Origin: Leucoraja ocellata
Lineage: Eukaryota
DNA: 64,000 nt
Assembly: GCA_036785375.1 (NCBI GenBank)
Contig: JAWMAR010000541.1
Location: 558,001-622,000 of the forward strand
Reading direction: 5' to 3'
Shown here: in pieces, positions 20,711 to 64,000 of the stretch
Layout of the letters: every line of letters begins with the position of its first letter
Numbering within the stretch: position 1 is the first letter of the stretch
Notes under the pieces: model-generated
Told to the model about the DNA's origin: nothing
Databases searched by the model: none
Seen by the model: the letters and a program-made list of their open reading frames with translations, nothing else
Made by a program: the position numbers and the translations under genes

Positions 20711-20984
20711 GCCGAGCCTATTGTATATTGTCTATTGAAAGAGTCTCCCAACGTCAAAAGATGGAGTAATAACAAGAATTTAGTCACATTAAACTATCTC
20801 AAGAGCGATGGAAGAATCATCTTGAGGAAGAGTCAGCAATAAATCATTCAGGTGCAAGTAGGTTATCACCTAGAATTTTGAACATTACAAGTCTGATCAA
20901 GGCTTTTGACATCAAAAAAGGAGGAACCGTGATCTCGCCTTCACTGTGATCCCTGATTCCCATTTCATCATGTCCCACTTCAAT

Positions 20985-22164
20985 GTGTCCCCACATCACC
21001 GTGTCCCCACATCACCGTGTCCCCCTGTCCCCACATCACCGTGTCCCCACATCACCGTGTCCCCCTGTCCCCACATCACCCTGTCCCCACATCACCGTGT
21101 CCCCCTGTCCCCACATCACCGTGTCCCCCTGTCCCCACATCACCCTGTCCCCACATCACCGTGTCCCCACATCACTGTGTCCCCCTGTCCCCACATCACT
21201 GTGTCCCCCTGTCCCCACATCACCGTGTCCCCCTGTCCCCACATCACTGTGTCCCCCTGTCCCCACATCACTGTGTCCCCACATCACCGTGTCCCCACAT
21301 CACCGTGTCCCCCTGTCCCCACATCACCGTGTCCCCCTGTCCCCACATCACCGTGTCCCCCTGTCCCCACATCACTGTGTCCCCACATCACCGTGTCCCC
21401 ACATCACCGTGTCCCCCTGTCCCCACATCACTGTGTCCCCCTGTCCCCACATCACCGTGTCCCCACATCACTGTGTCCCCCTGTCCCCACATCACTGTGT
21501 CCCCACATCACCGTGTCCCCACATCACTGTGTCCCCCTGTCCCCACATCACCGTGTCCCCCTGTCCCCACATCACTGTGTCCCCACATCACCGTGTCCCC
21601 CTGTCCCCACATCACCGTGTCCCCCTGTCCCCACATCACTGTGTCCCCACATCACTGTGTCCCCCTGTCCCCACATCACTGTGTCCCCCTGTCCCCACAT
21701 CACTGTGTCCCCCTGTCCCCACATCACTGTGTCCCCCTGTCCCCACATCACCGTGTCCCCACATCACCGTGTCCCCACATCACCGTGTCCCCACATCACC
21801 GTGTCCCCACATCACTGTGTCCCCCTGTCCCCACATCACCGTGTCCCCACATCACCGTGTCCCCACATCACCGTGTCCCCACATCACCGTGTCCCCCTGT
21901 CCCCACATCACCGTGTCCCCACATCACCGTGTCCCCCTGTCCCCACATCACCGTGTCCCCGTGTCCCCACATCACCGTGTCCCCACATCACCGTGTCCCC
22001 ACATCACCGTGTCCCCACATCACCGTGTCCTCCTGTCCCCACATCCCCCTGTCCCCACATCACCGTGTCCCCCTGTCCCCACATCACTGTGTCCCCCTGT
22101 CCCCACATCACTGTGTCCCCACATCACCGTGTCCCCCCGTCCCCTCATCACCGTGTCCCCACAT
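20985..22164. repeat. C-rich minisatellite built from two octamers (STGTCCCC, ACATCACY) in 16- and 24-bp units
   Basis: About 1.18 kb of gtgtccccacatcacc/t and gtgtccccctgtccccacatcacc/t. Confidence 0.97.
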
Positions 22165-23272
22165 TACATACCATTCGCCTTCTTTACTGCCTGCTGCACC
22201 TGCATGCCTACCTTCAATGACTGGTGTACCATGACACCCAGGTCTTTCTGCATCTCCCCCTTTCCTAATCGGCCACCATTCAGATAAGTCTACTTTCCTG
22301 TTCTTGCCACCAGAGTGGATAACCTCACATTTATCAACATTATATTGTATCTGCCATGCATTTGCTCACTCACCCAGCCTATCCAAGTCACCTTGCAGCC
22401 TCCTAGCATCCTCCACACAGCTAACACTGCCCCCCAGCTTCGTGTCATCCGCAAATTTGGAGATGTTGCATTCAATTTCCTCGTCCAAATCATTAATATA
22501 TATTGTAAATAGCTGGGGTCCCAGTACTGAGCCTTGGGGTACCCCACTAGTCACTGCCTGCCATTGTGAAAAGGACCCGTTTACTCCTACTCTTTGCTTC
22601 ATGTCTGCCAGCCAGTTCTCTATCCACATCAATACTGAACCCCCAGTTTGCTTTAAGTTTGTATACTAATCTCTTATGTGGGACCTTGTCGAAAGCCTTC
22701 TGAAAGTCCAGATACACCACATCCACTGGTTCTCCCCTATCCACGCTACTAGTTACACCCTCGAAAAATTCTATAAGATTCATCAGACATGATTTACCTT
22801 TCATAAATCCATGCTGACTTTGTCCAATGATTTCACCACTTTCCAAATGTGCTGCTATCCCATCTTTAATAACTGATTCTAGCAGTTTCCCCACTACCGA
22901 CGCTAGACTAACTGGTCTGTAATTCCCCGTTTTCTCTCTCCCTCCCTTTTTAAAAAGTGTGGTTACATTAGCTACCCTCCAAACCTCAGGAACTACTCCA
23001 GAATCTAAAGAGTTTTGAAAAATTATCACTAATGCATCCACTATTTCTGGGGCTACTTCCTTAAGTACTCTGGGATGCAGCCTATCTGTCCCTTTAATCC
23101 ATTCAATTCACCTAACACCACTTCCCGGCTAACCTGGATTTCACTCAGTTCCTCCATCTCATTTGCCCTCTGGTCCCCTGCTATTTCCGGAAGATTATTT
23201 ATGTCTTCCTTAGTGAAGACAGAACCAAAGTAGTTATTCAATTGGTCTGCCATGTCCTTGTTCCCCATGATC
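22165..23272 (-). mobile_element. CR1 RT fragment (same family as 10635-14845)
   Basis: High identity to 11270-12320; DFQKAFDKVPH and FADD motifs. Confidence 0.9.
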
Positions 23273-23452: not shown

Positions 23453-25732
23453 ACAAAAAGGCTGGAGAAACTCAGCGGGTGCAGCAGCATCTATGGAGCG
23501 AAGGAAATAGGCAACGTTTCGGGCCGAAACCCTTCTTCAGACTGATCGGGGGCGGGGGTGGGTGGGGACAAGAAAGGGAAAAGGAGGAGTAGCCAGAAGG
23601 CTGGGGGGTGGGAGGAGACAGCAGGGGGGCTGAGGAAGGGGAGGAGACAGCAAGGACTAACAAAATTGGGAGAATTCGATGTTCATGCCCCCGGGGTGCA
23701 GACTCCCCAAACGGAATATGAAGTGCTGTTCCTCCAATTTCCGGTGCTGCTCGCTGTGGCCATGGAGGAGACCCAGGACAGAGAGGTCGGAGACGGAGTG
23801 GGAGGGGGAGTTGAAATACTGAGCCACCGGGAGGTCAGCTTGGTTATTGCGGACCGAGCGGAGGTGTTCGGCGAAACGATCGCCCAACCTCCGCTTGGTC
23901 TCACCGATATAGATCTGCTGACATCTAGAGCAGCGGACGCAATAGATGAGGTTGGAAGAGATGCAGGTGAACCTCTGTCGCACCTGGAACGATTGTTTGG
24001 GTCCTTGAACGGAGTCGAGGGGGGAGGTAAAGGGACAAGTGTTGCATCTCTTGCGGTTGCAAGGGAAAGTGCCCGGGGAGGGGGTGGACCGAGAGGGAAG
24101 GGAAGAATTGACAAGGGAGTTATGGAGGGAGTGGTCTTTGTGGAAGGCAGATATGGGGGGAGATGGGAAGATGTGGCGAGTGGTGGGGTCACGTTGGAGG
24201 TGGCGAAACTGACGGAGGATTACTTTTTGTATGTGACGGCTGGTGGGGTGAAAGGTGAGGACTAGGGGGACTCGGCCCTTGTTGCGAGTGCGGGGATGGG
24301 GAGAGAGAGCAGTGTTGCGGGGTATGGAAGAGACCCTGGTGCGAGCCTCATTTATGGTGGAGGAGGGGAACCCCCGTTCCCTGAATAGTGAGGACATTTC
24401 AGATGTCCTGGTGTGGAACGCCTCATCCGTGGAGCAGATGCGGCGTAGACGGAGGAATTGGGAGTAGGGGATGGAGTCCTTACAGGAAGCAGGGTGGGAA
24501 GAAGTGTAGTCCAGATAGCCATGGGAGTCAGTGGGTTTATAGTGTATGTCGGTTAGAAGTCTATCACCTGCAATGGAGATAGTGAGGTCAAGGAATGGTA
24601 GGGAAGTGTCGGAAATGGTCCAGGTGTATTTGAGTGCCGGATGGAAGTTAGTGGTGAAGTGGATGAAGTCAGTCAGTTGTGTGCGGGTGCAGGAGGTGGC
24701 ACCAAAGCAGTCGTCGATGTAGCGGAGGTAGAGGTCGGGGATGGGGCCCTGGTATGTATTGAACAAGGATTACTCGACGTAACCTACAAATAGGCAGGCA
24801 TAGCTGGGGCCCATGCGTGTGCCCATAGCTACGCCTTGTATTTGGAGGAAGTGGGAGGAGTCGAACGTGAAGTTATTGAGGGTAAGGACCAGCTCCGCTA
24901 GGCGGAGGAGAGTGTCAGTGGCTGGGTATGGGTTGCTTCTCTGGTCGAGGAAGAACCGGAGGGCTATGAGACCATCGTGGTGGGGGATGGAGGTGTAGAG
25001 TGATTGGACGTCCATGGTGAAGATGAGGGGGTGAGGGCCTAGAGAATTGAATGCGCGGAGACGACGGAGAGTGTCTGAGGTGTCTTGAACATAGGTAGGG
25101 AGGGATTTAACCAAGGGTGATAGGATGGAGTCAAGGAATTTGGAAATGAGTTTGGTGGGGCACGAACAGGCGGAGACAATGGGTCTTCCGGGACAATCAG
25201 GTTTGTGGATTTTAGGGAGAAGGTAAAATCGGGCTGTGCGGGGCTGGGGAACGATGAGGTTGGAGGCTCGGTCGGGTAGGGCATTGGAGTGGATGAAGTT
25301 GGTGATGGTGCTGGAGATGGTGGCCTGGTGCTTGTCAGTGGGGTCATGGTCCAGGGGTAAGTAGGAGGAGGTGTCCGATAGTTGGCGCGTGGCCTCAGCT
25401 TTGTAGAGATCGGCGCGCCAGACTACCATGGCACCTCCCTTGTCAGCGGGTTTGATAACCAAATCTGGGTTGTTGCGGAGTCGATGGCAGAACGTTCCTG
25501 TGGTGAGAGATTGGAGTGAGACAGGGGAGTGGAGAAGTTGAGGCGGTTGATGTCGCGACGGCAGTTATTGATAAAAAGTTCTAAAGCCGGAAATTGGCCA
25601 CGAGGGGGGTTCCACGAGGAGGGGGTGCGTTGGAGACGGGAAAAGGGGTCATCAGTGGGGGGCGAGGACTCCTTCCCATGGAAGTACGCTGTGAGGCGGA
25701 GGCGACGGTAGAAGCGCTCCAAGTCGTGGTGG
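23453..25732 (-). mobile_element. Penelope-like element (Neptune type), 5'-truncated, RT + GIY-YIG endonuclease
   Basis: ORFs 24770-25462 (KPADKGG, TMDVQSLYT, GVAMGT) and 23657-24766 (RYIDD, CNRKRCNTC linker, LIYCVRC...YIGET) are in one frame, split by one stop. ggaggaagtt is duplicated at 23443-23452 and 25733-25742. Inserted in a CR1 3' fragment. Confidence 0.93.
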
Positions 25733-25742
25733 GGAGGAAGTT

Positions 25743-25962
25743 CTTTCGTCAGCAAGTATTTAATCTGAGGAACACATTGCCACAGGGAGCCGTGGAGGCC
25801 GTCAGTGGGGATTTTAAGGCAGAGATAGACAAATTCCTGATTAGAACGGGTGTCAAGGGTTCTGGGGAAAAGTCAGGAAAATGGGATTAGGAGGCAGAGC
25901 CATAATTGAATGACGGAGTGGACTCGATGGGCCGAATTCTCATCCTATCATTTGTGAACATG
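25743..25962 (+). mobile_element. CR1 3' end abutting the class II beta promoter
   Basis: FFRQQVFNLRNTLPQ...AEIDKFL; CR1 3'UTR gatgggccgaat...cctatcatttgtgaacatg. Confidence 0.75.
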
Positions 25963-26160
25963 CCCGGCTGTGATTGGCCCCTCTCTACCCGGCTGTGATT
26001 GGCCCCTCTCTACCCGGCTGTGATTGGCCCCTCTCTACCCGGCTGTGATTGGCCCCTCTCTACCCGGCTGTGATTGGCCCCTCTCTACCCGGCTGTGATT
26101 GGCTCCTCTCTACCCGGTTGTGATTGGTGATTGGTTTGTGCTGCTGGGTCGGTATATAAA
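25963..26160 (+). promoter_or_regulatory. MHC class II beta proximal promoter: 25-bp tandem array of Y boxes (inverted CCAAT) + TATA box
   Basis: Unit cccggctgtgATTGGcccctctcta starts at 25963, 25988, 26013, 26038, 26063, 26088 and 26113, plus one extra tgattgg (8 ATTGG in total). tatataaa at 26153-26160, 77 bp before the ATG. Confidence 0.8.
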
Positions 26161-26236: not shown

Positions 26237-26333
26237 ATGAAGGACGGCGCCGCCCAGCTCCGCTCCCTGTGGTTCAGGGTTGCGCTCTTGTTCTGTTCCC
26301 TGCTGCTCCCTGGACAGCACGATGTTGGAGTCG
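26237..26333 (+). CDS. DAB: MHC class II beta exon 1 (signal peptide)
   Basis: MKDGAAQLRSLWFRVALLFCSLLLPGQHDVGV + 1 nt, then GTGAGT donor at 26334; lies downstream of Y boxes and TATA; CpG-rich. Confidence 0.8.
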
Positions 26334-30376: not shown

Positions 30377-30900
30377 TTAGGAGGTAATGGAAGAAAAGCT
30401 CTTTCATATGGCAGAGAGGAACGAAGGAAAGGCCTCTGAGGACTGTCAGGAGCAGTCCAGCTGTGGGTAGTTGACATGGAGTGTCGGTGGAATGACAAGT
30501 CTGGAGGCAGACAAAGCTAGTAGTCTGTGGTGAGAAACTGGTTGTTGAGGCTTGGACCTAGTGTAGAATGAAGTAAAGTTGTGAGAGGCATAGAGTAAAC
30601 ATTCAGAGATTGTTCCCAGGGTCCAACAATAGAGGGTTAAGGTGAGAGGCAGAATGTTTTATGGAGATATACAAGGCAAGTTTGTTGGTGAGTAGTGGAG
30701 GCCTGGAGCACGTTGCCAGCGATGGTGGTGACAACAGATACAATGGTGGTGGCATTTAGGAGACTTTTGGATGGGTACATGGAAGCGCAGAGGATAGAGG
30801 GATATGGATCATGTGCAGGCAGATAAAATCTGTTTATGTTTGGGGCAAACATTGTGGGCTGAAGGGCCATTCATGTGCAGGACTGTTCTGTTCCAGACTA

Positions 30901-31262
30901 GAGGCCCGGGACCGTTGGAGAGCAGTGGAGGAGGGTCAGGGCGGTGAGCACTTAAATCGGGCGCGGGGCTTGTTTTCACAGAGGCCCGGGACCGTTGGAG
31001 AGCAGTGGAGGAGGGTCAGGGCGGTGAGTACTTAAATCGGGCGCGGGGCTTTATTTCACAGAGGCCCGGGACCATTGGAGAGCAGTGGAGGAGGGTCAGG
31101 GCGGTGAGTACTTAAATCGGGCGCGGGGCTTGTTTTCACAGAGGCCCGGGACCGTTGGAGAGCAGTGGAGGAGGGTCAGGGCGGTGAGTACTTAAATCGG
31201 GCGCGGGGCTTTATTTCACAGAGGCCCGGGACCGTTGGAGAGCAGTGGAGGAGGGTCAGGGC
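30901..31262 (+). repeat. 80-bp tandem monomers (4.5 copies) at the CR1 5' end
   Basis: Unit gaggcccgggaccgttggag...ttttcaca at 30901, 30981, 31061, 31141 and 31221 (partial). Confidence 0.95.
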
Positions 31263-31644
31263 TTTTTTACCAAAATCCGTAACGTTCCACACTCCATAGT
31301 GAGGGTTCTGGTGGAAGCCGCTGATTGGTGGAAGCAGACTAGAGGAAGCAATTGATTGGGTGCAACCTCAGGTTAGCATTTGTGCTTTCTGGTTAAAGGT
31401 ACAGTGCTGTAGTAAAGGCACAGTGGGCTAAAGGTGCAGTGCTTTAGTAAAGGTACAGTGGGCTAAAGGTGCAGTGCTGTAGTAAAGGTACAGTGGGCTA
31501 AAGGTGCAGTGCTTTTTGTTTATATAATAAAGGTGCAGTTTAAAGGTCACGAGGGAGCAGCTGTTGTGAGTCAGATACCTGCTGATTTCTCCCAGCAGTT
31601 TCTATTGTATTATACTTGTATCGGATCCAGGGTAAGGCGGGAGA

Positions 31645-37254: not shown

Positions 37255-37525
37255 GGGCTCACGCCGGATGCAGGATTGTGGGCTGTTTTTTTTAACAGCA
37301 ATGACACCAAGCAGTGGACCTACACTGATCACCAAACCTATGATGGCGAGCTCATCTACTTCTTTGACTTTGACCAGAGGAAGTTTGTAGCAGCAAAGGA
37401 CTGGATGCAGAGCAACGTGGACAGATGGAATAAGGACGGGTCAGCAGAATCAGCATACCAGGGTGGGATCGGCATGTGTGAGAACAACGTTCCCATTTAT
37501 CAAAGAGAGGTGCTGCCCTGGAGAG
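37255..37525 (+). CDS. DAB: MHC class II beta exon 2 (beta-1 peptide-binding domain), +1 frameshift in a T8 run
   Basis: GAHAGCRIVGC|F/FNSNDTKQWTYTDHQTYDGELIYFFDFDQRKFVAAKDWMQSNVDRWNKDG...MCENNVPIYQREVLPWR; conserved Cys pair, W-N and NDT sequon; 271 nt versus the canonical 270. Confidence 0.92.
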
Positions 37526-38789: not shown

Positions 38790-39069
38790 TTAAACCTGAG
38801 ATCACAATCCGGCCCAAAGTCTCCCCCCACATGGGACAGTCGGCTCTACTCACCTGTCACGTCACTGGTTTCTACCCTTCTGAGATTGAAGTCACATGGC
38901 TGAAGAACGGAGCCCCAGTCCCCAGCGTGCATCAACACAGTGCTGCTGTCAGACGGTGACTGGACCTATCAAGTGGAGGAGCTCCTGCAGTACCACCCGG
39001 TGTCTGGGGATACCTACACCTGCCGTGTGGAGCACAGCAGCCTGGAAAAGTTCGTGGACATGGACTGGG
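38790..39069 (+). CDS. DAB: MHC class II beta exon 3 (beta-2 Ig C1 domain), frameshift at ~38927-38930
   Basis: VKPEITIRPK...LLTCHVTGFYPSEIEVTWLKNG, then in another frame INTVLLSDGDWTYQ...YTCRVEHSSL...DW; 280 nt versus the canonical 282. Confidence 0.94.
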
Positions 39070-42436: not shown

Positions 42437-42551
42437 ATGTGCAGAGCACTACCGAGTCTGAGAGAACCAAGATCATCGTGGGAGCGCTGGGCTTTGTGTT
42501 TGGGCTGCTCATCCTGCTGGCTGGAGTTAATGAAGCTGAGGAACGCTAAAG
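42437..42551 (+). CDS. DAB: MHC class II beta exon 4 (connecting peptide + TM), frameshift at ~42529
   Basis: TACTAAC branch point at 42409-42415; DVQSTTESERTKIIVGALGFVFGLLILLAGV, then shifted MKLRNAK; donor gtgagc at 42552; 115 nt (not 3n). Confidence 0.92.
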
Positions 42552-50925: not shown

Positions 50926-50955
50926 CTATCCTGGATTCCACCGGCCATGGCCCAC
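50926..50955 (+). CDS. DAB: MHC class II beta exon 5 (cytoplasmic, 30 nt)
   Basis: tttctcttccag acceptor, (A)ILDSTGHGP, gtaagt donor; phase-compatible with exons 4 and 6. Confidence 0.85.
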
Positions 50956-51634
50956 GTAAGTACCCAGGTTACTGATTACTTTGGGATACTGGTTATTTTG
51001 GGAAGCTGCTCCACACCCTCCATGGAATCCCCAGTTGTGGGCTGAAAGCTTGTCTCCCCTTGCCTCAGGTCTCAGGGGACCTGCCCTGTCCCACAGCAGT
51101 GGGTGGGCCATGTGATGTGGGGCCGAGATGATTCCTCCCTCAGTGCAGAGACGCCAGTAGGTCTGTATGAAGGAGACATCCGAGTCCCTCAATGTACAGT
51201 ACTGACACCATAGTAACACTAGGGGTGTACAAGGAGACATAGAAACATAGAAAATAGGTGCATGAGGAGACAATTCGGCCCTTTGAGCCAACAATGAATG
51301 GTGGTGCTGGGTCGAAGGACTGAATGGCCGCCTCCTGCACCTATTTTCTATGTTTCTAATAACCCGTGCCTGCCTTCTCCCCATATCCCTTTATTCCAGT
51401 AGCCTCTAGAGCTCTATCTAACTCTCTCATAAGTTCATAGTGATTTGGCCTCCACTGCCCTCTGTGGCAGGGAATTCCACAAATTCACAACTCTCTGGGT
51501 GAAAAAGTTTTTTCTCGCCTCAGTCCTAAATGACCTCCCCTTTATTCTAAGACAGTCAGCAGAACACTTCCTGGTCTGTGCAGAAAGTGGTTGGGGTTGG
51601 GTGTGTATCGGGTTAATCCCCACGACTCTCCCTG

Positions 51635-52010
51635 GTGGGGGATGTAGAAGGGACATGGTCACTGGGACTCTCCTTGGTCAGTTCAGACATTGGGTGGGGG
51701 ATGTAGAAGGGGACATGGTCACTGGGACCCTCCTTGGTCAGTTCAGACATTGGGTGGCGGATGTACAAGGGACATGGTCACTGGGACCCTCCTTGGTCAG
51801 TTCAGACATTGGGTGGGGGATGTACAAGGGGACATGGTCACTGGGACCCTCCTTGGTCAGTTCAGACACTGGGTGGGGGATGTACAAGGGACATGGTCAC
51901 TGGGACCCTCCTTGGTCAGTTCAGACACTGGGTGGGGGATGTACAAGGGACATGGTCACTGGGACCCTCCTTGGCCAGTTCAGACACTGGGTGGGGGGTG
52001 TAGAAGGGGA
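51635..52010. repeat. 59-60-bp minisatellite (~6 copies) in beta intron 5
   Basis: Unit gggacatggtcactgggaccctccttggtcagttcagacattgggtgggggatgtacaag. Confidence 0.95.
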
Positions 52011-52072
52011 TAAGGGGACACAGTCTCCCATCTGTGATCTGGATCCTGACCTCTCTCCACCCTCTGTTCCAG

Positions 52073-52098
52073 GTCTGATGCCCACTACGGTTGCTTAG
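52073..52098 (+). CDS. DAB: MHC class II beta exon 6 coding part (RLMPTTVA*), followed by 3'UTR
   Basis: ctctgttccag acceptor; continues the exon 5 frame to TAG at 52096-52098. Confidence 0.82.
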
Positions 52099-53055: not shown

Positions 53056-53387
53056 CTCAGTTCCTCACTGAATGTGGTGCTGGACACTGGTCAGACACAG
53101 ACTCTCCCACAAGCAGTCAGGGTCCAGGATAAACTGGATACTCTGCTTCCTGCTGTGTGGACTTGGTCCTGGGGTGAAGGTTGTTTACCTTCTGTCCTTC
53201 ACACCTTCCACCCACACACTGCCAGGAGGTGATGGATGGGGCATCGATTGCCTGTAGCTGGAGGTTCAGTCATTGACTCTGTTCCCCCTCAGCCTGGGTT
53301 CAGTCAGTGTCACTGGTCCTAAACATCACTGATGGTGGGAGTGATCTATGTGTAACCTGAGTGAGATGATGTGTAAGGCATTGATCT

Positions 53388-53734
53388 GCTCATCCAGCCC
53401 ACAGGTCCTGCTCCCCAACCCCCTCCTCAACATGGGCTCATCCAGCCCACAGGTCCTGCTCCCCAACCCCCTCCTCAACATGGGCTCATCCAGCCCACAG
53501 GTCCTGCTCCCCAACCCCCTCCTCAACATGGGCTCATCCAGCCCACAGGTCCTGCTCCCCAACCCCCTCCTCAACGTGGGCTCATCCAGCCCACAGGCCC
53601 TGCTCCCCAACCCCCTCCTCAACATGGGCTCATCCAGCCCACAGGTCCTGCTCCCCAACCCCCCCCCCCCCCCTCAACATGGGCTCAACCAGCCCACAGG
53701 TCCTGCTCCCCAACCCTCTCCTCAACATGGGCTC
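53388..53734. repeat. 48-bp minisatellite (~7 copies)
   Basis: Unit gctcatccagcccacaggtcctgctccccaaccccctcctcaacatgg. Confidence 0.95.
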
Positions 53735-55949
53735 CACTCAGGGCAGAGGGGGGAACACAATGGTGATGGATCAAAGGAGACCAGGAACTGCAGATGCTGG
53801 AATGTTGAGCAATGCAGTGCTGGGGGAAGCTTTGGTTTGGGGGCCTTGTATTTTGGGGATGGTGGGGCAAGATAAAGCTGAAACTGTATGAGTGGGACAT
53901 TTGAGGGGGTATTTGACACATGGGAAGTTAAAGGCTAGAGATGAAAAGAGTAGAAAAATGAAATGTGGAGGGATAGGAGTGGACGGGGAAGAAGTGGAAA
54001 TCAAACTACAAATAGGAAAAATCTAAAATAATAACTGAAGAATTCAACAGGTCAGTCAGCGTTTGCTGATGAAGCAGATGGAGGTAATCTCCAGTGGGAG
54101 CTGAGCAGAGGGAGTGTGGGAGAGTCTGATGCATAAGTCTGTTCTCCGGGGGGGGGGGGGGGGGGGTATGGGCTTAGGGGGGTGGTTTACACCCCAGGAT
54201 GCTGGGATCAGTCAACAGCTTCAGTGAGGGGTAAGGGACAGAGGGTGGGTCTGTGTGTGGTGCACTGGGCCAACACCAGGCTGAATGGTGTATGGGTCTG
54301 CAGTGGGTGGAGGGAGGGTGGGGACATCCACAGGAGACGGGAGCAGAAGGTGCGGTGATCTGGGAAACATTCCAGGGAAATGCAGAGTTGGGTGGGGAGG
54401 GATGTGGTCAAACTCCTCATCCATGGGAAAGGGCTGCTTTAGTGTGGGACTGGAGGGCAAGGTTATGGGAATGGTGGCGGGGGGGGGGGGCAGCTCTGAG
54501 GGTCAAGAGGTGGGGATTGGAGGAGGGACAACAGGTGTGATGGAGTGATGGAACGAGGAGAAGTTCTTGGGAAAGGTTGTGGACAATGGAAGGAAACCAT
54601 GGGTTGGGCCAGAAGATGAGGATCCATCGCACCTGGGGGACCCAGGCAGAGCTGAGGCTTCACCCGATGCCCTGACCTCAGTGTCATCATCACCCAGAGG
54701 GGGAAGGGTCGGCATGGGCATGGATGAGTCGGGCACGGGCAAGTGTTGAAGGGGGTGGGTTGAGGGTAGTCGGTGGGGGTGGACAAAGGAGGGCAGCCAG
54801 GTGGGACATGTTGACAACACAAGCTCCTGGGGCTCTGAACTGAGGCACGTGGAGAGAGAGGTGGAGTTGGGCTGGTCAGACAGTGGTGCTGAGGTCAACC
54901 AGCCATGGGGAGAGACCCAGGACCTGCTCAACTGCAGTCTGGGGAGAGGACAATGGTGGTGGCTGCTTGGACAATGAAGATGGTGACAGTTTGGACAGTT
55001 CCCCAATCCCAGAACATTCCCCAGACTGGTAGGAAATGGACGTCGGTGTGAGAGAGAGGGAGGGGGAGTCTGGAAACGCAGTGTAGCTACCCCACCCCTG
55101 GGGAAACGTGAGATCTGTCACTGAGGAACTGGTGATGGAGGTAACAACAGCTCTGGCAAAGGTGGCCTGGATATGTCTGACAAAATGGTTCGGTGGTGAC
55201 CAGCAGTGACATGTGTGAACCAGTCCCTGCAACGTACTTGCACCATCACAAGTCCTGTGTTCAGGTGCTGCTGGTACGTTAAGATTAGAAACCAGGATCT
55301 GTAGGTGCTGGTTTACACAAATAGACAAAGTGCTGGAGTAACTCAGTCTGGCTGCATCTGCGGAGAACATGGATAGGTGACGGGCTGGGTCTGGACCCTT
55401 TTTCACACCTGTCAGGTGCACATTCCTGGGGTGACGTGTGGACATGGATTGAGGTCTGGGGAATATGTGTAAATCAGAGGGTGGACATGAGTCAGCATCA
55501 GCTTGTGTGAGTGGCCCGTGGATGCTACAGGGAGCACAGCAGCTTGTGAGTAGTCAAGGGCATGACAGGTGGAATAAATGCAGAGTTTGTTAAATGTAGA
55601 GAGAGTAGAAGGAGCTGATGTCCAGATGGGGCCCGTTGTCCCTGTACACAACTCACTGAACCCGTAGGATCAGCAAGCTACAAGGAAGGTGCACGGGCTT
55701 CACTATAAGAGGGTCTTGGTTACATGGGTGCCTGGCACACTGAGCTTGGGTCTGGTGAGGGACTGGAGCACCAATGGTTCCTGTCACAGTGAGTTTGCCC
55801 TCTGGTCCCACATCCAGAATCTTGCAGAGAATAAAACAAAACACTAGGGTGGGGTTGAGTCTGAAGCATAGTTATGCTTCACAGCATTGACACTTTAGAA
55901 ATGGGAATGTCCCACCCGAATGTAGGAGAAGGTGGGCAAACTTGAAGTT

Positions 55950-59715: not shown

Positions 59716-60421
59716 AGTGTTTAGAAACTATCCTAAAACCAAGCACCCATGTCATTCATCTGGTCCCTTGGGGTGACATCCCTTCCCTTGTGTGAGGGGT
59801 GTCTTCACCAGATTGTTCCCCTCAATGTCCCACTGTGAAATGACCCTAAACTGTGGTCCACCCCCACAGAGCATTGGCGTGGTCTACACCAAGCTTCAGA
59901 GAGTCCCTCAGCGTTTCCTTCTCCAGTGTGAAATAGACCAGTCAGCAACATTCCTGATGGACATCTAGCTGTGCTGGGACTTTAACAAGGCTCTGGCTGG
60001 GAGGGCCCATCTCACCGCCACCCAAGCAAAGAGTTAGAGCTTTTTTGTGTGTTCTGACGATGAGGCATATCGGTAGACAAGCTGGGCAGTCTGACTGCAA
60101 TGCGTCTGTAGAAATAGATAAAAGTCTTTGGGGACATGTCAAACTTCCTGAGCTGGAGGTATTGGTTTGCATCCATGGTCACTATGTCAGTGTGGTTGGA
60201 TCAGGACTAGTAACCATCTAAGAGTGGGAGAGAAGGAGGGGGGGGGTGATGGGATTTGTTCCGGAGATGCCGGTGTGTTATCCCGGGCTGGGAAGCAGAA
60301 CTAGCTTCTTTCAGACGGGCCACTGGGGGAGGGGTTGTCAGTAATATCATCAACCACAAGCAACAGAGAAACAGAGTGCAGCCTCCCAAACCGCAGACTC
60401 ACTAACATGGGGAATAAACAG

Positions 60422-60463
60422 CCAATGAAGTGGTGCAGCTGTAGCTTGTCACCTGTTGCCGGG
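60422..60463 (-). promoter_or_regulatory. Candidate MHC class II X-Y regulatory module 1 (inverted)
   Basis: Minus strand CCCGGCAACAGGTG + 23 nt (starting ACA, giving the X2-like TGACA) + ATTGG; same spacing as HLA-DRA CCTAGCAACAGATG...CTGATTGG. Confidence 0.7.
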
Positions 60464-61975
60464 TAGGATCTGTTTTTGAAGTCTGGTTGGGACTAGGATA
60501 TGTAGAGATCATCTGTATCTGAGGGAATGGTAAATAGAGGTGAAGGATGGCAGCGAAAGGGGAACATAATAACGCACCTATTGTCTCTCCGCTGACTGGT
60601 TAGCACACAGTAAATGCTTTTCACTGTACCTTGATACACGTGGCAATAAACTAAACTCAAACTCAAAACCGTGCTGGAGGAAGTCAGTGGGTCAGGCAGC
60701 ATCTGTGGAGGGAATGGACAGATGACATTTCTGGTTGGGACCCTTCTTTCATTTCGTTTGTTGTGGGGGGTAGAAAGCTGGAAAAGACACATGAGGGCAG
60801 GACAAAGATGGGCAAGTGCTGGGTGGATACAGGTGGATTGATGGAGGGTTGGAGTGAGTGACAAAAGAATCTTCAAAACTGTGTCACGTCTCACGCCCTC
60901 ATGTCTCTGTATTTATCTCTGGCCTTTGTTCCAATCATCTATCCATCAAAACCCCCCTCGCCTGTGTCTACCTGCTGTGCTCTCTCCCCTTCTCCCCTCA
61001 ACTACAATCAGCCCAAAGTAGTGTATTGACTAGAAACATCATCGATCCATGTTCTCCAGTGTTGCTGTAACCTTGCTGCTTAACCTGCTGAGTTACTCCA
61101 GTACTTTATGTCCTTTTGTGCATTAACCAGCATCTGCAGTTCTTTTTTTCTAGGTTTCGACAAAAGTTGGAAGTTTAAAGACAAGAAGGCGCTAGATAAG
61201 GAGAGATATCTCCCAAGTTACCTTTTTTTTCTGTTAATATACTCGTAGAATCTGATAGGATTCTGCGATGACATATCTGCTAAAAATGTGTGTCCTCCTG
61301 AATTCTTTAAGTGCACTCCTATATTGCTTCTGCTCCTCAAGGGAATTGCTTGATCACAGCAATCTATCCCTGGCATATACCTCCTTCTGGATGTTGGAAA
61401 TCTGAACTAACGGAGAATGTTGGGAATGTCCAGCAGGTTAGGTGGCGACTGAGCTAATGTTACAATGGACGATTTACATCAGAACCTGTCAGTAACCGGC
61501 ACAAACTGGAACGGCTGGTTATCTGAAATTGAACCATGGTAGCTGAGGACAGAAGGTGGGGTGGTGGGGTATGAGATTGAACTGTGGGAAACTGGAATAG
61601 AGGGTTGTGGAGATTAGAAACAGCAGCAGATGATCCATATGGTGGCGTTGATATGAGGAAGGACAAGGATATAGTTATGGCGAATGGAGATTACACCAGG
61701 GATTTGCAGGGTTCTGATAAGTGGGAGTCAGGGGTGAGGACAACAGATACTGTGGTGATGATCCAGAGGGTGGGGGTGGGTGAGGAAGGGAAAGGAGGGA
61801 GGGGGAGCTGCGAGGGACCAGTGACCATCCCAGGCGCTGAGAGGGTTTCAAGATGTCAGAGAGCTTGTTCAGATTGCTCAGTGGGGGAGGGTTTGGCTGG
61901 GAAATCACCAACTCCAGGCAGTAGAGAAACAAAGTAAACCTCTCACGTCGCTGGCCCACAAACGAACAAAACTAG

Positions 61976-62017
61976 CCAATACAGCAGTGTGGTTACAGTT
62001 TGTCACGTGTTGCTGGG
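61976..62017 (-). promoter_or_regulatory. Candidate MHC class II X-Y regulatory module 2 (inverted)
   Basis: Minus strand CCCAGCAACACGTG + 23 nt + ATTGG; flanks homologous to module 1. Confidence 0.7.
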
Positions 62018-62229
62018 TAGGATTTATTTATGAAACCTTGTTTTGATAAAGATACAAGTCAAGTTTGTTTTAACCCCATATGTACTGACAATGGAGCAAT
62101 GGAATCCTTACTTCCTGCAGCTTTATCAGCCCATGAACGCAGCAACACAAATAAATGTACAATAGATTTATAATCTGTAATTACAAAACTGATCAAAGTG
62201 CAAAACTGTAGTCAGCAGTGGAACCAAAC

Positions 62230-63120
62230 ACAGTCCATGTTAGATCATCGTTGCTGAGGTAGGATTGTGGTTAGTGTGGTGCAATGTTTACAGGAAGAAG
62301 CTTCTTGCTCTTGAACATGGAGGGAATGATTCTCAACTTTCTTCCCAATGGTAGCAGTGAGATGAGAACATGGCAGGATGGTATCAGTCTTTGATGATAC
62401 TTGCTGCCTTTTTCAGGCTGTGCTACCTGAGGTTCAGTTTGATGGTTGGGGGAGGGATGAATATCCATGAAAGACCTGACAATGTCCGTCACTTTCTATA
62501 GTCTTTGTTCCTGGACATGCCCCTGTCAAAACGTTCTCAAAACCTGCACGGGCCAACTCACTGGAGATTTTGTGGACATCTGCAACCTCTCAATACTGAG
62601 GTCTAAGGTTCTCTCCTGTTTTAACAGGTCATTGATAATACCGGTGTCCAAGAAGAGTAAGGTGCATGTCTCAATGACACATGGCAATTATGGCAGTAAT
62701 GTCAATGGAGATGATGTGTTTTGAGAGGTTCGTTGTGGAACATATTCACTATCTCAACAAGAACCTGGACCCACTGGACCTGCTACAATAGATCAATGGG
62801 GGATGTAAACTGGCAACAACACTTCCTCCTCAATAATCATTAGATATCTCAGGAACACCTCAAGGCTGCATGCTGAGCCCCTGCCCTAATCACGTTATAT
62901 CCATGACTGAGTAGCAGAACACAGTTCCAACTCCATCTTTAAATTTGCTGACAACACCATCGTTGTTGGAGGAATTATTGGTAAAGATGAATCAGAGTAT
63001 AGGAGGGAGATCATTATCTGATTGAATGGTGACAGAACAACAATGTTGCTCTCAACACCAATAAGACCAAGGAGCTGATTGTTGACTTTAGAAGATGATG
63101 GACAAGGATCCACTAACCTG
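62230..63120. mobile_element. Degraded Rex1/Babar-like fragments in both orientations
   Basis: VLKTCTGQL..VDICNLSI; PQGCMLSP, KFADNTIVVG, KTKELIVDF remnants. Confidence 0.65.
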
Positions 63121-63407: not shown

Positions 63408-63724
63408 AGGGTAAGTGGCTAAGGCTAGAGATGAAAAGGAAGAAAAAGAGTATCAGATGAGGGGAGGAAAGCAGTGAAATATAAAACCGAAAGGAGGGAT
63501 AAGGTGGAAACGCCAAGGACAGGTTCTGTCCACCAGGTGTGTCCGGATGTCGTGGTGGAGGTGGGAGCATCCCGTGCTGGAGGTGAGAGAACACAGAACA
63601 TGTGTTCTCCTCGTCCTTGGCGTTTCCACCATATCCCTCCTTTCGGTTTTATATTTCACTGCTTTCCTCCCCTCATCTGATACTCGTTTTCTTCCTTTTC
63701 ATCTCTAGCCTTAGTCACTTACCC
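63408..63724. repeat. Inverted repeat, ~113-bp arms with ~90-bp spacer
   Basis: 63408-63520 is the near-perfect reverse complement of 63613-63724. Confidence 0.9.
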
Positions 63725-63779: not shown

Positions 63780-64000
63780 TACTCAGTGCCACGACTGAAG
63801 ATGTCAACCATTCCCCTTCACATTCCTATACTGAGCTAACTGTTGTGGGCCTTCTCCATTGCCAGAGTGAGGCCACACATAAACTAGAGGAACAGCATGT
63901 CATAATCTGCTCGGGCAGCTTAGAACTCAATAGTATAAAGGTTGAATATTAACTAACCTCTAACATCCCCACATCCACTTTCTACTCTCCACCCCCCGCC
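63780..64000 (+). mobile_element. Penelope-like GIY-YIG C-terminal fragment
   Basis: HSPSHSYTELTVVGLLHCQSEATHKLEEQHVI matches the C-terminus of ORF 23657-24766. Confidence 0.75.

Follow-up and report, generated by a model that had tools for sequence, protein, structure and literature searches.

The window, the whole 64 000-nt stretch of DNA analyzed here, is batoid (skate-like) MHC class II DNA as judged from sequence matches. At its left end lies the final coding exon (1283–1429, + strand) of a gene for an MHC class II alpha chain, recognized from protein matches and encoding the connecting peptide, transmembrane segment and tail; the promoter of this gene falls to the left of the window. 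Identity of the exon reaches 96% with a skate and a stingray protein and 91% with nurse shark, and 31 of 93 candidates passed, every one of them class II alpha. A classical-type MHC class II beta gene occupies 26237–52098 (+ strand). Searches by tblastn with intact 273-aa relatives place its six exons at ~26237–26333, 37255–37525, 38790–39069, 42437–42551, 50926–50955, and 52073–52098. The beta-1 part is 87–88% identical to the intact 273-aa relatives P0001 and P0002, and outside the binding groove the copy is near-identical to its intact relatives except for three 1-nt frameshifts, one each in exons 2, 3, and 4 (~37285–37292, ~38926, and ~42528). These frameshifts may represent assembly errors or a young pseudogene; N gaps adjoin exon 3. 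With the 3′ end of an alpha gene and a whole beta gene in the window, the class II context proposed in an earlier note on this DNA is borne out. Several minisatellites lie within the class II genes or close to them, at 20892–22290, 30900–31299, 51591–52015, and 53340–53769 (units of 8, 80, 59–60, and 48 nt, respectively).

The beta promoter (25963–26160, + strand) is made up of a 25-nt tandem array with eight ATTGG cores (25973–26134) and a TATA box, with the word TATATAAA at 26153. It had been described as lacking an X box, and we likewise found no canonical X box in it and no X1-plus-Y match on either strand upstream. Because this beta copy carries three frameshifts, the X-less state may itself reflect decay or assembly noise. 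An inverted X-like word at 26138–26152, which agrees at 13 of 15 positions with the second of the two modules described below, was rejected, as it reads GCAGC for GCAAC and has no Y box at the right distance (p = 0.10). Transposable-element sequence starts just upstream of the promoter (~25920). A retroelement at 23657–25872 (− strand), with RT-like and GIY-YIG-like frames and presumably Penelope-like judging from its motifs, lies within 100 nt of the Y array, and it may have displaced upstream elements of the beta promoter. The array itself (25963–26135, + strand) amounts to a 25-nt minisatellite of Y boxes. Within the window, the 9-mer CTACCCGGC is confined to the unit junctions of this minisatellite (five occurrences) and the 5′ half of the X box of the first module; read post hoc, the minisatellite unit may have arisen when a deletion joined half of an X box to a Y box, with amplification following.

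Two diverged homologous blocks of ~200 bp, as had been claimed for this region, lie 8–10 kb 3′ of the beta gene, the nearer one 8.2 kb from its stop codon and 34 kb from its TATA box. By blastn, 60310–60488 matches 61868–62042 with 69% identity over 180 nt (E = 3e-13), and local alignment extends the homology to ~60303–60500 and 61861–62054 (score 141, against a maximum of 41 in 200 shuffles). We refer to these blocks, both read on the − strand, as module 1 (60303–60500, ~200 nt) and module 2 (61861–62054, ~195 nt). Within the window there is no third copy, the next best tile scoring 38 compared with 137. No matches to the modules were obtained in Rfam at E ≤ 1 or in a metagenome pattern scan, and a search of the modules for terminal repeats, a target-site duplication, or LTR or MITE ends found none. 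An imperfect palindrome of 316 nt (63409–63724, 80% self-complementary) is situated 1.4 kb to the right of module 2.

On the − strand, both blocks read ATCCTA-CCCRGCAACASGTG-ACAA...ATTGGCT, and ATTGG begins 23 nt after a 14-nt X1 box ends, exactly as first described. In module 1, the X1 box CCCGGCAACAGGTG (60450–60463), a predicted RFX site, follows ATCCTA and agrees with the X1 reference at 11 of 14 positions; the Y core ATTGG (60422–60426; CCAAT on the + strand), a predicted NF-Y site, follows X1 after 23 nt. Module 2 repeats this arrangement with the X1 box CCCAGCAACACGTG (62004–62017, again after ATCCTA and again 11/14), predicted to bind RFX, and, 23 nt on, the Y core ATTGG (61976–61980), predicted to bind NF-Y. 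The GCAAC core of X1 is intact in both. At the X2 position (60445–60449 in module 1), GTGACAA spans the X1/X2 junction and supplies a TGAC half-site; four of the five X2 letters are identical between the modules, and the half-site is present in both, a full CRE in neither. The 14-nt X1 reference is one that we take to equal the DRA X1 motif, and the 23-nt distance is presumably that of HLA-DRA. The reference was derived by reversing a published transversion mutant of the HLA-DRA X box, assuming that all 14 positions had been transverted (PMC2278383). PMC5437515 gives an X–Y spacing of 17–18 bp for human class II genes, and the 18 nt between X2 and Y in the modules fit this range, although box definitions may differ in that source.

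The homology is not limited to the boxes. It spans ~35 nt upstream of X, where a 7-nt X flank is preceded by 30 nt with 20 identical positions, and continues for ~115 nt downstream of Y, where 79 of 111 aligned columns are identical. In module 1 this downstream part (60303–60419, − strand) contains the words TGTTTCTCT and CCCTCCCCCA, and it has neither a TATA box nor a leader exon.

How often such an arrangement would arise by chance depends on how it is defined. Allowing up to three X1 mismatches and an ATTGG 21–25 nt further on, these two sites are the only ones in 128 kb (both strands). The chance expectation per window is 0.0025 at a gap of exactly 23 nt (one event in 400 Markov shuffles), 0.03 at gaps of 22–24 nt, and 0.14 under a looser definition of X. 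As module 2 is a duplicate of module 1, the two copies count as one event. Between the copies, the boxes are identical at 29 of 33 positions, compared with 9 of 18 in the spacer (p = 0.005) and 108 of 159 in the rest of the homology (p = 0.014), the box limits in both tests having been set post hoc. A third X-like word (62250–62265, − strand) is nearly identical to the ATCCTAC...AGCAAC of the modules (p ∼ 0.07) and is probably part of a repeat. It was rejected as a third module, having no Y box at the right distance and a repeat-level read depth of 2618 against ~90 for single-copy sequence in run X8. The presence of such a word in a multi-copy repeat may be coincidental, or the repeat may have supplied skate genomes with RFX sites.

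No S box is common to the two modules. Judged against an S-box consensus that we assume to be correct, which would lie ~16 nt upstream of X, module 1 has AGACTT 15 nt upstream of X1, a weak match, and module 2 nothing similar; the earlier description, that no convincing S box is present, was thus accurate. The same holds for its statement that no leader exon follows: a proximal class II promoter would have one ~100–150 nt downstream of Y, yet not one of the nine ATGs within 400 nt of the two Y boxes opens an exon that combines a signal peptide with a splice donor, and the same ATG and donor scan led us to discard the short ORFs beyond the Y boxes as leader candidates. Between 52.6 and 64 kb, tblastn with 40 class II proteins returned nothing credible in the way of class II exon remnants (best E = 0.04). 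Up to the end of the window at 64000, the modules sit within the class II locus at a distance from leader exons and start sites. In organism B, an oligo-dT run of unstated tissue gave no reads on the modules or on any of the 15 low-copy bins, a weak negative drawn from 12.9 million records, or ~5% of the run, with no class II positive control.

We then considered read data from related species, in which four of 24 listed runs were aligned over 59800–62400 at 80% likeness; 20 public runs from nine organisms contain parts of this region. Membership in a dispersed repeat family, the objection that the earlier note itself had raised, is not what these reads indicate: depth over both blocks is ~1–4 times that of single-copy sequence, compared with 1e5–6e6 in the neighboring SINE bins. 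Module 2 is single-copy, with one contig per run at 61899 in each of three relatives, organisms D, H, and F (depth 85.8, 4.6, and 40.8, respectively). At 60441 in module 1, depths of 303, 4.8, and 119 in D, H, and F correspond to roughly 3–4, 1, and 3 contigs, so that module 1 has about one to four look-alikes, one of which matches only the X–Y core. Low depth in all three relatives shows that the blocks are not a dispersed repeat, and together with the lack of terminal repeats and of a target-site duplication it upholds the assignment to sequence outside transposable elements. According to PMC10751288, elasmobranchs have one to four class II gene copies, a number that the few look-alikes of module 1 would fit.

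The look-alike that matches only the core is a 953-nt contig of F (X13 record 3), which aligns over 60357–60469 without a gap and with 16 differences, a stretch that starts in the X flank and runs ~65 nt beyond Y. As it matches the core alone, it appears to be a further copy that keeps the X–Y core and its spacing and whose flanks fall below the 80% threshold. The 747 nt of this contig downstream of the module 1 core may hold a leader exon.

Divergence was compared contig by contig, over 24 listed contig pieces and with 40 of 388 substitutions listed individually. In D, the module 1 contig (over 60301–60495) has 1 substitution in 187 positions, compared with 69 in 1650 (4.2%) in six other contigs (p = 0.004), and in H it has 14 in 313, of which ~115 nt are flank, compared with 144 in 1626 (8.9%; p = 0.004). 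Against baselines of single-copy sequence only, these values become p = 0.007 and p = 0.04, respectively. Excess conservation of module 2 is not significant in D (14/466, p = 0.15) or H (19/310, p = 0.07), and the contigs of F, which are mostly flank, show no depletion of substitutions (49/647, p = 0.47; 63/898, p = 0.29). The baseline for F omits X13 record 1 (22/113, in a repeat bin and probably not an orthologue) and X13 record 4 (a 240-nt record overlapping SINE bins), and X13 record 3 was treated as a paralogue. Overall, module 1 shows excess conservation in D and H, not in F, and for module 2 the excess is not significant in any of the three relatives. These tests are not independent, because the branch to the present genome is common to D, H, and F.

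Spacing can also be followed in these contigs. The X–Y stretch of module 2 is free of gaps in D, where all four gap letters fall elsewhere, and in H, which has none. The D orthologue of module 1 has eight gap letters, whose positions within the block are not placed, and one D copy of module 1 lacks 1 nt of the X2–Y spacer, at 60441. The earlier proposal that the spacer had diverged while its length and the boxes were kept by selection is upheld in part: the excess identity of the boxes and the low divergence of module 1 from D and H agree with it, and the results for F and for module 2 show no significant signal of this kind.

The duplicated X–Y modules are real and probably functional. We place somewhat better than even confidence in the view that a class II-type X–X2–Y module was duplicated here, and that its two diverged, low-copy versions act as distal enhancers of the RFX/NF-Y/CIITA type for the class II cluster. 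The class II context, the X–X2–Y geometry, the low copy number, the lack of an exon, and the constraint on module 1 speak for the distal enhancer that the earlier note had proposed; the S box, module 2, the data from F, the frameshifts of the beta gene, and the ~115 nt shared downstream of Y, as in a copied promoter with its 5′ UTR, do not. Its term "inverted" applies in one sense, in that the modules lie on the − strand, opposite to the genes in the window. As the modules share no S box and factor binding is predicted, the elements would, on present sequence evidence, be filed as X–Y modules and not as a full S′-Y′ enhancer or LCR.

If the modules act in this way, X1 would be bound by RFX5, RFXAP, and RFXANK, as predicted from mammals, the TGAC half-site by a CREB/ATF-type factor, and the Y box by NF-Y. 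The fixed 23-nt distance between X1 and Y would keep these factors on those faces of the helix that CIITA recruitment requires, and recruited CIITA would in turn open chromatin and promote looping to a class II promoter. The candidate target would be either the beta promoter in the window, with its Y boxes and TATA box and no X box, or a further alpha or beta gene to the right of the window. The literature offers precedents. RFX and CIITA both bind the S′-Y′ element that lies 2.3 kb upstream of HLA-DRA (PMC2677874), several distal modules are described in the class II locus and Ii, with a module active in both orientations in reporters (PMC1802633), and imperfect modules without an S box still recruit CIITA (PMC2278383). 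Orthologues of both CIITA and NLRC5 are present in the whale shark (PMC8455134).

The homology past Y extends over ~115 nt, the part in which a promoter would have its start site and 5′ UTR, as would be expected of left-over proximal promoters of minus-strand class II copies whose exons were deleted, either neutral or secondarily active like human XL-7 and XL-8. The additional module 1 copies seen in D and F likewise fit the one to four class II genes reported for elasmobranchs (PMC10751288), and PMC2292219 describes XL-7 and XL-8 as likely promoter remnants of DRB pseudogenes. However, such an origin is at odds with the absence of a leader or other class II exon remnant and of a TATA box from the modules, and a comparison of the modules with the beta promoter in the window, the one promoter covered, gave no significant homology (p 0.10–0.70). 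The divergence of 1/187 in D is also unlike neutral decay. We regard promoter remnants as unlikely, if the least unlikely of the alternatives. Rather than a class II gene, the target could be a neighbor beyond the right edge of the window, for example the beta-2-microglobulin gene or the block of class Ia, TAP, and PSMB genes, with the modules serving as SXY-type enhancers through NLRC5 or CIITA. Only 1.9 kb to the right of module 2 lies within the window; the elasmobranch class II region adjoins class Ia and is linked to beta-2m and brd2 (PMC10751288), and class I and class II X boxes are interchangeable in reporters (PMC4374748). The latter source also states that NLRC5 requires a distinctive S box, whereas none is common to both modules. 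Their X1 boxes, moreover, resemble the class II DRA reference, and a target outside class II seems to us quite improbable.

Two further explanations were considered. An RFX half-site, a CCAAT box, and a C-rich word are common in promoters at large, and conservation continues downstream of Y, so that the modules could be active promoters driving a minus-strand transcript that is unannotated and probably non-coding, or they could be RFX1-3/NF-Y sites of a generic kind with no tie to antigen presentation. The exact class II distance between X1 and Y would be superfluous for such sites, and the absence of reads in ~5% of the single oligo-dT run from organism B is a weak point against transcription; we hold this to be very unlikely. 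Lastly, the blocks could lack any function, being pieces of some low-copy mobile element or a motif that arose by chance and was copied in a local duplication. A multi-copy repeat only 240 nt away bears the very similar X-like word at 62250–62265, the rate in the window, when scaled to a whole genome, would imply that roughly a hundred such modules, or more, arise by chance, and F shows no conservation at the contig level. Yet depth is 1–4 times single copy, against 1e5–6e6 for SINEs, terminal repeats and a target-site duplication are absent, and module 1 shows excess conservation in D and H, with the boxes kept over the spacer, leaving an origin without function as the least likely of all the readings.

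Within the preferred reading of distal class II enhancers, a stronger version can be formulated, which we consider unlikely: the skate beta promoter, keeping its Y array and TATA box, has lost its X box, and RFX/CIITA input comes wholly from distal 3′ X–Y modules at each cluster, a looped split enhanceosome that would be the oldest long-range control of the MHC. If the X-less beta promoter is both real and active, it offers a test of whether a class II enhanceosome has to assemble next to the promoter. A conserved, correctly spaced X–Y module outside a promoter would suggest either that the RFX/NF-Y/CIITA geometry and its distal use predate the split between cartilaginous and bony fishes or that they arose twice, and a distal enhancer role, if true, would date long-range control of class II genes to early jawed vertebrates. 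The modules are two short elements open to direct testing. We found no report of class II promoters or distal modules in elasmobranchs, in a literature search that left most subscription journals outside its reach, and distal X–Y modules are apparently unreported in cartilaginous fish.

The mammalian distal S′-Y′ and Ea elements are inverted in orientation. Like HLA-DRA S′-Y′ and the distal X–Y element of mouse Ea, the skate modules are X–X2–Y arrangements outside a promoter in a class II locus, with X1 boxes matching DRA at 11 of 14 positions. The mammalian elements, however, have an S box and sit upstream of an alpha gene with its own S–Y module, whereas the skate modules are two copies, S-less or S-weak, 3′ of a beta gene. 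The NLRC5-bound SXY modules of class I, B2m, TAP1, and PSMB9 use the same X and Y factors as predicted for the skate modules, but are defined by a conserved S box and a promoter-proximal position, neither of which the skate modules show. XL-7 and XL-8, the HLA-DRB pseudogene promoter remnants, are likewise intergenic X–Y modules without a gene; in contrast to them, the skate modules have no pseudogene exon remnant between 52.6 and 64 kb, and module 1 is constrained in two relatives. The distal S–Y modules of the human class II region and Ii (CD74), namely #2, #4, #6, #8, Ii S′-Y′, and Ii Y″-S″, are also several in number, away from start sites and in either orientation (PMC1802633). These human modules have ChIP support, whereas those of the skate are known from their DNA letters; unlike the human modules, the skate modules share ~115 nt beyond Y.
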